Source of the DNA: a virus
Lineage: Duplodnaviria > Caudoviricetes
DNA length: 64,000 nucleotides
Strand: one strand, 5' to 3'
IMG/VR virus record: IMGVR_UViG_3300037424_001256
Location: 24,033 to 88,032 of that record
A model generated the notes under the pieces. It had not been told where the DNA came from and did not search any database. It was given only the letters and a program-made list of their open reading frames with translations. Below, in pieces: positions 62,769 to 63,950 of the stretch (positions are counted from its first letter, which is position 1; every line of letters begins with the position of its first letter). Made by a program: the position numbers and the translations under genes.

Positions 62769-63950
62769 TCTTAGCCATACAACGAGCGAGCCAATATCCG
62801 CGAGAAGAACCATAAATCGTAATCGAACCATCAATAATGAGTTGCACCATTCCCAGTGAGTGAACCATAAATTCCGTGATGCCCAAATGTTGGAGAGTGA
62901 ACCATCGAAACTGATTGTTTCTTATATTAAGAGTGAATCAATCCCTAAAATTATTTCAACATATCAGAGTGAACAGATGGGATGTTGGCTTAGAGGCAGC
63001 CATGGCGAAAGCTGATTACTTTATTGTAATCCATTTAAAGAGTAGGGCGATGGCTACTAGTGACCCGGCTGTATTTTTCGCATTTTTATCGGCCTGAACC
63101 CCGATGAGGGGAAGATGAATGCGATGGGTATACGATGTTACTCACTAGTTCCGTAATGACAAGGTAACACAAAAGCTACGGAAACGAGAAGGCGTATATC
63201 TTGGATGTTGCGGTAGAGTTACACTTGGTACTCCCTTTTGGCGTAATAGCACACCATCGACAGACTATTTCAGAAACTCTGAGTGAGCCACTAAGTCAGA
63301 ATTACAACATCATCTATGAGCGAGTCAATCTGACAGATTAATACAGAACATCCGAGCGAATCAATATATGGAAGTGTGCCAAATTTCTCGAATGAGCCAT
63401 CTGATGAGAAAGTAACGATATTTCAGTGCGAACCGCAGGATCGGAAGAGTAACAAGTATTTTGATTGAGCCAACGATGATATTTGCAACAACGAAACATA
63501 ACTTACGAGAGCACCATTCGGATTGAGTGAACCCAAAGGATTTATAGTGCCAAACGTATATGAGTGAGTCAAAAAAAAGGAATAGATTCATTACTTCAGA
63601 GCGAATCATGTTTCTTGAGAATAACCAAGGGTTAGGGAAGCGAACCATATCGTCTGAATTAAACACTACCAGAGAGTGAGCCAGCACTATTCAGGATGAC
63701 AAAAAGCCTGTATCAGAGGCATTTTTGGAGTTTGTGTTAGGATTTATGGTGATGAATACCAGTAATTCTGTAGAAGCTTTCAAGGCCATTGATATAATGT
63801 TTGGTTGGTAGTGATCGAATCATAGAGCTTGAGAGTAACAGTTTCTAAGAGTGAGCCAGAACTGCAGATATCAACACTTTCTGGGAGCGAACCAATATAC
63901 AGGACTAAATTATATTAGCGTGAGTGAATCACTGATTAAGAATGTTTCGA
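62769..63950 (+). repeat. TIGR-like dual-repeat array 3 (about 20 units in three blocks)
   Basis: Edges at 62784, 62821, 62858, 62895, 62931, 62967 | 63281, 63318, 63354, 63390, 63426, 63463, 63525, 63562, 63599, 63638, 63674 | 63813, 63849, 63885, 63922. Confidence 0.85.
62976..63258 (+). ncRNA. Structured RNA containing a 23S rRNA H42-H44 (uL11-binding) mimic with two insertions
   Basis: GATG-GGATGTTGGCTTAGAGGCAGCCAT [28 nt] CATTTAAAGAGT [197 nt] GCGTAATAGCACAC-CATC. Confidence 0.8.

Follow-up and report, generated by a model that had tools for sequence, protein, structure and literature searches.

The GTPase-associated centre (GAC) of bacterial 23S ribosomal RNA (rRNA), formed by the tip of helix 42 (H42), H43 and H44 (Escherichia coli positions 1051-1108), is an autonomous unit, which as a 58-nucleotide (nt) fragment binds both the ribosomal protein uL11 and thiostrepton. 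Here we describe a 283-nt element of an uncultured 88-kb phage that is a self-closed mimic of this centre (H42-H44) under selection for its fold. It lies at positions 62976-63258 (+ strand), within a TIGR array, of a 64,000-nt stretch of phage DNA that we call the window, the final 64 kb of an 88,032-bp IMG/VR virus record (IMGVR_UViG_3300037424_001256) that was obtained from a sediment metagenome and rated complete by CheckV. The mimic has the same helices, loops and tertiary-contact nucleotides as the ribosomal GAC. Unlike the ribosomal domain, it is free-standing, phage-encoded and closed by its own covarying H42, outside any rRNA gene; it carries a helix and a UUUG linker at 1090/1091, its U1090-A1101 pair is Watson-Crick, and in this phage a further 28 nt are inserted at 1078/1079.

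Several other described systems share part of this design. The mRNA leaders of ribosomal proteins, such as the L10 leader (RF00557), also hold an off-ribosome copy of a stalk-base protein site, but they are cis-regulatory, sit upstream of ribosomal-protein genes and are loosely rRNA-like, whereas the mimic is nearly identical to rRNA in sequence, adjoins no ribosomal-protein gene and has no Rfam match. Phage decoy RNAs, among them pseudo-ToxI (PMC3475682) and the phage tRNAs that replace cleaved host tRNAs, likewise copy a host or defence RNA, and expression from clusters of non-coding RNA (ncRNA) is a trait that they would share with the mimic; the mimic differs from them in copying an rRNA domain. 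GOLLD and ROOL are structured ncRNAs of phages and prophages that, like the mimic's family, often occur in tRNA clusters, but the mimic is much smaller, has an rRNA-derived core and matches no Rfam family in sequence or structure. The array around the element resembles the dual-repeat TIGR arrays of Faure et al. 2025 (PMC12045711) in its 36-nt units, its edge and loop repeats and its Tas protein. Such arrays have been described as guide units only, and a structured non-guide RNA of 283 nt inside one is mentioned neither in PMC12045711 nor in bioRxiv 10.64898/2026.09.09.750476.

Alignment to the annotated E. coli 23S rRNA resolves the element into three rRNA-like blocks: 62980-63003 (1055-1078; 23 of 24 nt identical), 63032-63043 (1079-1090; 10 of 12) and 63241-63254 (1091-1104; 13 of 14). 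The GAGU that ends the second block is a Bacillota-type feature, seen in the real 23S rRNAs that we compared. The two ends of the element close in a 5-bp H42 of its own, GAUGG (62976-80) with CCAUC (63254-58), whose sequence is unlike that of the rRNA helix. A1067 (62992), A1095 (63245), U1060 (62985) and A1088 (63041) are all present; G1071/C1072 (62996-97) and their partner pairs G1091-C1100 and C1092-G1099 (63241-42/63249-50) are all kept; and the equivalent of U1090-A1101 (63043/63251) is Watson-Crick. The original prediction, made from the letters without database searches, had placed the three blocks, the compensated H42, the retained contact bases and the Watson-Crick pair here, and the alignment confirms them. 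It had also claimed that no further rRNA flanks the element; a search of the whole genome with RF02541 (LSU_rRNA_bacteria) returned no match, and the flanks consist of TIGR units. The element is made up of the following parts:

62976 to 62980, + strand: 5' strand of the H42 equivalent, GAUGG (E. coli 1051-1055), which pairs with 63254-63258; the helix covaries in the family.
62981 to 63003, + strand: equivalent of H43 (E. coli 1056-1078), including the 1067 loop with A1067 at 62992; supported by alignment, covariance model and core fold.
63004 to 63031, + strand: insert 1, which separates 1078 from 1079 and consists of two hairpins, one with a GNRA loop (63004-63013) and one of 6 bp (63014-63031); both recur in the related phages L004 and L006.
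63032 to 63043, + strand: 3' end of H43, junction and 5' strand of H44 (E. coli 1079-1090, with the U1082-A1086 pair and A1088); supported by alignment, covariance model and covariation.
63044 to 63240, + strand: insert 2 (197 nt), which separates 1090 from 1091; its only homologues are in L004 and L006 (76% identity).
63241 to 63253, + strand: hairpin and 3' strand of H44 (E. coli 1091-1103), with A1095 at 63245 and A1101 at 63251; supported by alignment, covariance model and core fold.
63254 to 63258, + strand: 3' strand of the H42 equivalent, CCAUC (E. coli 1104-1108); covaries in the family.

The element is neither rRNA debris nor an assembly chimera. DNA contigs from an independent sediment sample agree with the window without differences over 62920-63070 and 63138-63288, and the element recurs, at 76-85% identity, in L004 and L006, two related phages of ~87 kb found in other metagenomes. 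A search of public runs for the element turned up no RNA data set. Because the independent contigs are identical and the two relatives show compensatory changes, the element is not an artefact of assembly, and a chimera with host rRNA, a danger that the original prediction had raised, is refuted by these same contigs and relatives. We note that the source sample also holds a copy of the element that is ~10% diverged (a variant contig compared with window 62908-63249). In this copy 93 nt of insert 2 (63065-63157) are swapped for 91 unrelated nt, which suggests modular exchange within the insert.

No known RNA class accounts for the element. A search of the whole window against Rfam 15 at gathering thresholds, which covered GOLLD, ROOL, the ribosomal-protein leaders and others, gave no matches, and at E values up to 10 around the element it returned only noise, namely sR58 (E 6.8) and DUF805b (E 8.4). 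The possibility of a known class, left open in the original prediction, thus found no candidate among Rfam families. In 50,697 deposited phage genomes blastn found no match to the element, and a first scan of viral sequences with a gapped pattern found none either. The family was found by scanning IMG/VR with short core patterns: a 5' pattern designed to exclude true rRNA hit 18 loci, and the 3' pattern TTGGCGTAATAGCACAC hit at least 118. Members lie on more than 100 viral contigs, and from the pattern matches listed we parsed 83 distinct elements, to which all counts out of 83 below refer. They have a single architecture, consisting of an own H42, H43, the junction, GAGU, a variable helix, UUUG, GCGUAAUAGCACAC and the second H42 strand. 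Every insert-bearing member has the variable helix and UUUG between 1090 and 1091, with an insert 2 of 29-369 nt, and about 9 of the 83 have an insert at 1078/1079 as well. The window shows the family traits in its AGGG/CCCU helix, its UUUG at 63237-40 and its U63043-A63251 pair. Our search of the literature found no description of a GAC-mimic RNA family, and by the standard of Rfam 15 and the literature we rate this family as a kind so far undescribed.

We built a covariance model, R1, from nine short members (109 positions), with the window excluded from training. On the 64 kb of the window it gave a single match, which ran end to end over the element (62975-63260; model positions 1-109 of 109; 64 bits; E 5e-15). 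On the viral loci it made 94 matches in 100 loci, and it confirmed 16 of the 29 contigs from bacteria or metagenome-assembled genomes that carry the 3' pattern, which come from several phyla. The real E. coli GAC is itself recognised, with a score of 56.9 bits. A model of this kind had been suggested in the original prediction, as had selection on the fold rather than captured rRNA debris, and on the latter family-wide covariation agrees. We aligned 33 diverse members with MAFFT and scored 21 pairs, those of the rRNA together with the closing helix of insert 2. Paired combinations fill 96.7% of cells, 13 of the 21 pairs show double changes, and the covariation score is 0.61 against 0.15 in shuffles, with none of 500 shuffles equal to it and all slid controls poor. 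Repeating the analysis on the R1 matches gave 96.2% of cells paired and double changes in 14 of the 21 pairs. Covarying pairs include 1058-1080 (U-A, G-C, A-U), 1057-1081 (A-U, C-G) and 1082-1086 (U-A, C-G, A-U), the same ones that vary among real rRNAs. Among 72-73 distinct sequences, U1060, U1066, G1071, C1072, A1077, A1084, A1085, G1087, A1088 and U1090 are invariant or nearly so. Of the tertiary-contact nucleotides and the loop adenines A1067 and A1095, A1067 alone varies, with an A in only 87%.

Freed of both inserts, the core of 58 nt adopts H42, H43 and H44 at -18.9 kcal/mol (z -3.4), better than 200 of 200 shuffles. The E. coli 58-mer has this three-helix architecture too and is less stable than the excised core (-15.3 versus -18.9 kcal/mol). 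The GAC pairs that can form in the window comprise H42, H43 (1057-1059/1079-1081 and 1062-1064/1074-1076), U1082-A1086 and H44 (1087-1102, 1090-1101 and 1091-92/1099-1100).

The inserts are structured as well. The two hairpins that the original prediction had drawn in the 28-nt insert 1 gain compensatory support from L004 and L006, in which the GNRA loop persists, a single base pair has been added or has disappeared, and one A-U pair becomes G-C by a double change. Insert 2 is closed by AGGG (63044-47) and CCCU (63233-36), has a structured interior and leads into the linker UUUG (63237-63240). Its closing helix covaries in all four pairs in the family alignments, and several of its helices show compensatory changes when the window is compared with L004 and L006. 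One covarying hairpin of the insert (63094-63117), kept in L004 and L006, holds CUGAACC (63094-63100) followed by two copies of GAUGA (63103-07 and 63113-17). These motifs look like the edge-repeat core of the TIGR arrays (UGAACC) and like box D/C, which makes a contact with a Nop or Tas protein possible; the sole database signal for them is the noise-level sR58 match.

The stretch GGATGTTGCGGTAGAG at 63209-63224 in insert 2 has 13 of 16 bases in common with the 5' strand of H43 (62980-62995), and a similar stretch occurs in L004 and L006; it could reflect an alternative pairing or a partial duplication. In 23 of the 83 members (L032, L036, L041 and L054 are examples), insert 2 contains, 14-16 nt short of its end, a conserved module of the form CACCCC-N-tetraloop-N'-GGUAAGG, in whose stem the third pair covaries; the window's clade is without it. 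A group I intron reading of insert 2, prompted by the U before it and the G at its end, was rejected, as family inserts of 29-369 nt occupy the same site, whereas such an intron has a P3-P8 core and takes up at least about 200 nt, and no Rfam intron matched even at E values up to 10.

We then considered the setting of the element. The window holds at least three arrays built on the dual-repeat TIGR plan, in which an edge repeat (GAGYGARYC), 9 nt, a loop repeat and 9 nt recur with a 36-nt period. The arrays are dispersed (3429-3690, 52563-52952, 62784-63683 and 63813-63950), and they have the same edge repeat and one Tas gene between them. In phmmer searches against the PDB, the 355-amino-acid protein matched 9mty_A (E 1.2e-11) and TasH (21kl and others; E 4.8e-7), and it has a weak match to the Pfam family Transposase_20. 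The features of this setting are as follows:

51465 to 52532, + strand: gene for the Tas (TIGR-associated, Nop-type) protein of 355 amino acids; array 2 begins at its stop codon.
62740 to 62769, + strand: promoter-like site by consensus match only (TTAAGA-18-TATAAT; 10 of 12 positions), a short way before array 3.
62784 to 62975, + strand: upstream part of array 3, made up of about five units of 36 nt; its last edge repeat, GAGTGAACA (62967-62975), is degenerate.
63259 to 63683, + strand: a 22-nt remnant, then the downstream part of array 3, with a full edge repeat GAGTGAGCC at 63281 and about 11 units.
63706 to 63726, + strand: weak terminator-like hairpin (GCCU-7 nt-AGGC, then AUUUUU) after array 3; below the scan threshold.
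63813 to 63950: a short further array, which follows the terminator-like hairpin.

The element is on the same strand as array 3 and is immediately preceded by GAGTGAACA (62967-75), a degenerate repeat in which one C of the CCA end is missing. Promoter-like sites are no more numerous around array 3 than in shuffles. The original prediction had the element start directly after an edge repeat, with the array resuming at 63281. This describes the window correctly, but the start position is not kept in L004 and L006. The embedding in a TIGR array is likewise genuine, and a Tas gene is present, but it is peculiar to this clade: among ~104 elements, those of the window, L004 and L006 are the only three in TIGR arrays, and we rate the window's element as the first family member seen inside a guide-RNA array. 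The arrays of L004 and L006 have more than 40 and more than 20 units, with a few spacers in common. Elsewhere in the family, 52 of the 103 other elements have a tRNA gene no more than 500 nt away, in the same orientation in every one of the 52 cases; the window's phage has no tRNA or tmRNA gene. What stays constant is a location in an operon of processed small RNAs, of which the TIGR array is this clade's version. Since the family sits mostly in tRNA clusters, the RNA is not a TIGR component as such.

The neighbourhood names no protein partner. No conserved neighbouring protein was found, the best cluster occurring in 6 of 70 loci with a weak HNH-like match. A uL11 gene is absent from the window's phage and from the 50 other carriers searched, so any partner would be a host component. 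The portal protein, examined for clues to the host, has only distant, mixed relatives.

These observations lead us to propose that the family probably imitates the ribosomal GAC site away from the ribosome. For its function, the explanation that we favour, and that we hold with about as much doubt as confidence, is that a stable ncRNA acts as an off-ribosome sponge for uL11 and yields uL11-poor, RelA-inactive ribosomes. The sequence, the fold (through covariation), the family membership and the genomic setting are shown, whereas we infer the transcription, release, uL11 binding and physiological effect involved. The element would be a stable ncRNA gene whose two ends fold into a self-closed copy of the GAC (H42 tip, H43 and H44), with a lineage-specific structured domain carried between positions 1090 and 1091. 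Off the ribosome, this RNA would present a second copy of the GAC site, and the conserved core makes host uL11 its likeliest ligand. Uptake of free or exchangeable uL11 would leave uL11-poor ribosomes. Ribosomes poor in uL11, as in relC mutants, cannot activate RelA; ribosomes depleted by the phage RNA would fail in the same way, and the stringent response would be blunted during infection.

Two aspects of the element bear on uL11 as the ligand. The isolated 58-nt rRNA domain folds by itself, and the C-terminal domain (CTD) of uL11 binds it tightly (PMC1802607). Published contacts are at 1058-1060, 1062-1065, 1075-1083 and 1088 for the uL11 CTD, and at 1059-1064, 1068-1070 and 1095-1098 for the N-terminal domain and thiostrepton (PMC1802607). 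The universal insert site at 1090/1091 lies outside both sets, as expected if the protein-binding face must stay free. The variability of A1067 fits selection for the fold and for CTD binding more than for a thiopeptide or EF-G contact.

Transcription would probably begin at the promoter-like site (62740-62769) and take in the guide RNAs and the element together; processing of the flanking edge repeats would then probably cut out an RNA of ~310 nt. TIGR guide RNAs (tigRNAs) are cut in the middle of the edge repeat in a Tas-dependent manner (PMC12045711; bioRxiv 10.64898/2026.09.09.750476), and the same cuts would free an RNA of about this length. Since the element lies in a genuine TIGR array and on its strand, co-transcription with the tigRNAs and release by edge-repeat cleavage are plausible. 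Clean Tas-dependent release is uncertain, because the upstream edge repeat is degenerate and the position of the element relative to the repeats differs in L004 and L006.

Several further points weigh against uL11 sequestration by a GAC fold. Thermodynamic folding of the full 283 nt gave a minimum-energy structure without the GAC fold, and RNAalifold on the three sequences did not recover H43 and H44; the case for this fold in the full element is made by covariation and the excised core, not by the full-length minimum-energy structure. Insert 1, in the window's clade and about eight other members, interrupts the 1075-1083 strand that contacts the uL11 CTD, and uL11 binding in the window's clade may be altered by it. 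The conserved UUUG linker, the invariant U1090-A1101 pair and G1089 are not explained by uL11 binding. In Flintibacter muris, the single usable pair, the mimic does not track the GAC sequence of its own host, so that no tuning to the host is visible (four other genome matches to the 17-mer in this host-rRNA comparison were chance matches in coding DNA and were set aside).

The RNA might instead be a decoy substrate that draws off a GAC-directed ADP-ribosyltransferase, nuclease, methyltransferase or thiopeptide and so spares the ribosomes that the phage needs, a reading that we consider unlikely. Abortive infection or bacterial warfare would be the setting for such agents, and the Tre23 toxin ADP-ribosylates 23S H44 around nt 1095-1098 (PMC8661411). 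Of the 12 distinct elements that the 5' block alone brought up, 10 have an exact 3' block and 10 an unchanged 1093-1098 loop. The lack of a phage protein partner fits a decoy of this kind, and so does carriage by phages of many phyla, which is expected for a universal target. However, ribosomes are in large excess, and very high copy number or higher affinity would be needed; the 13% of members in which A1067 varies make it less likely that thiopeptide binding was the trait under selection; and we know of no defence system that targets the GAC.

We think it somewhat less likely still that the GAC is merely a scaffold, that is, a stable, protein-clamped closing domain that folds, stabilises or localises an active, lineage-specific insert 2. 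This would suit an insert 2 that is structured, with compensatory changes, that ranges over 29-369 nt in sub-classes with motifs of their own (the CACCCC-hairpin-GGUAAGG module at a fixed distance from the 3' end), and that has a swapped central 93 nt in the diverged variant of the source sample. But the GAC core is the sole feature common to all members, inserts of only 29-47 nt exist, and the functional loops are conserved beyond the needs of a mere clamp.

An improbable third option is a factor trap, in which the RNA, with or without uL11, would bind translational GTPases or RelA-type enzymes and change translation or alarmone signalling. EF-G, EF-Tu, IF2 and RF3 dock at the GAC, and activation of RelA needs it (PMC1802607). 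Productive factor binding, however, also needs the sarcin-ricin loop and the bL12 stalk, and A1067, a factor contact, is not strictly kept. A copy of the sarcin-ricin loop was sought in the 83 inserts and in the window with up to 3 mismatches, and none was found.

A role as an accessory of TIGR-Tas, such as a platform for processing or for the loading of Tas, appears highly improbable to us. In its favour, the element lies within the array in three related phages, and CUGAACC and GAUGA of insert 2 resemble the edge-repeat core and box D/C. Against it stand the brevity of the C/D-like motif, with an Rfam match at noise level (E 6.8), and the ~100 other members that have no TIGR array nearby, half of them being in tRNA clusters. 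We give next to no credence to a captured rRNA fragment, an intron-bearing piece of rRNA or a functionless chimeric assembly, which high identity to 23S rRNA over short blocks and an insert 2 that follows U and ends in G, as in a group I intron, might suggest, and which is already refuted by an H42 exchanged for a different, compensated helix, flanks free of further rRNA, covariation across the family, confirmation in independent assemblies and relatives, the lack of any intron-family match, and inserts of 29 nt that are too short for group I introns.

Beyond this phage, we can only tentatively suggest that phages of many phyla encode GAC decoys that strip uL11 and silence RelA, or absorb toxins, and that the window's clade uses its TIGR array as a Tas-dependent release platform. 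If this is true, the element would be the first passenger of a TIGR array that is not a guide, and a long structured RNA in such a place bears on how arrays are transcribed, processed and annotated. An RNA working as an off-ribosome copy of the stalk base would be a new viral route to translation and the stringent response, by an RNA replica rather than a protein. The family is large, defined by covariation and easily tested, as uL11, thiostrepton, probing and crystallographic assays already exist for the 58-nt domain. The window's element is of use to RNA engineering, too, as a natural case of a GAC fold that accommodates large insertions (at 1078/1079 and 1090/1091).

We also noted insert-free copies of the GAC, each of 62 nt, in proviral contigs of isolate genomes (L013:1759-1820, + strand; L005:4353-4414, - strand; L015:3125-3186, + strand). 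They have a closing helix of their own and the rRNA-like U1101, and each is followed by a hairpin, a ribosome-binding site and an open reading frame for a small membrane protein. These copies may be cis-regulatory sensors of the uL11 type or captured pieces of rRNA.

In the remainder of the window, 2146-3138, directly upstream of array 1, encodes a UDP-GlcNAc 4,6-dehydratase (PseB/CapD-like; PDB 2gn4, E 3e-94). Downstream of the Tas locus lie genes for a putative restriction endonuclease of the Uma2 family (53650-54207) and a RepA_N replication initiator (54574-55506). Finally, window 63941-64000 occurs on the opposite strand of the same Logan contig, as a fold-back that holds a reverse-oriented edge repeat; it is either a contig-end artefact or an inverted array at the genome terminus.

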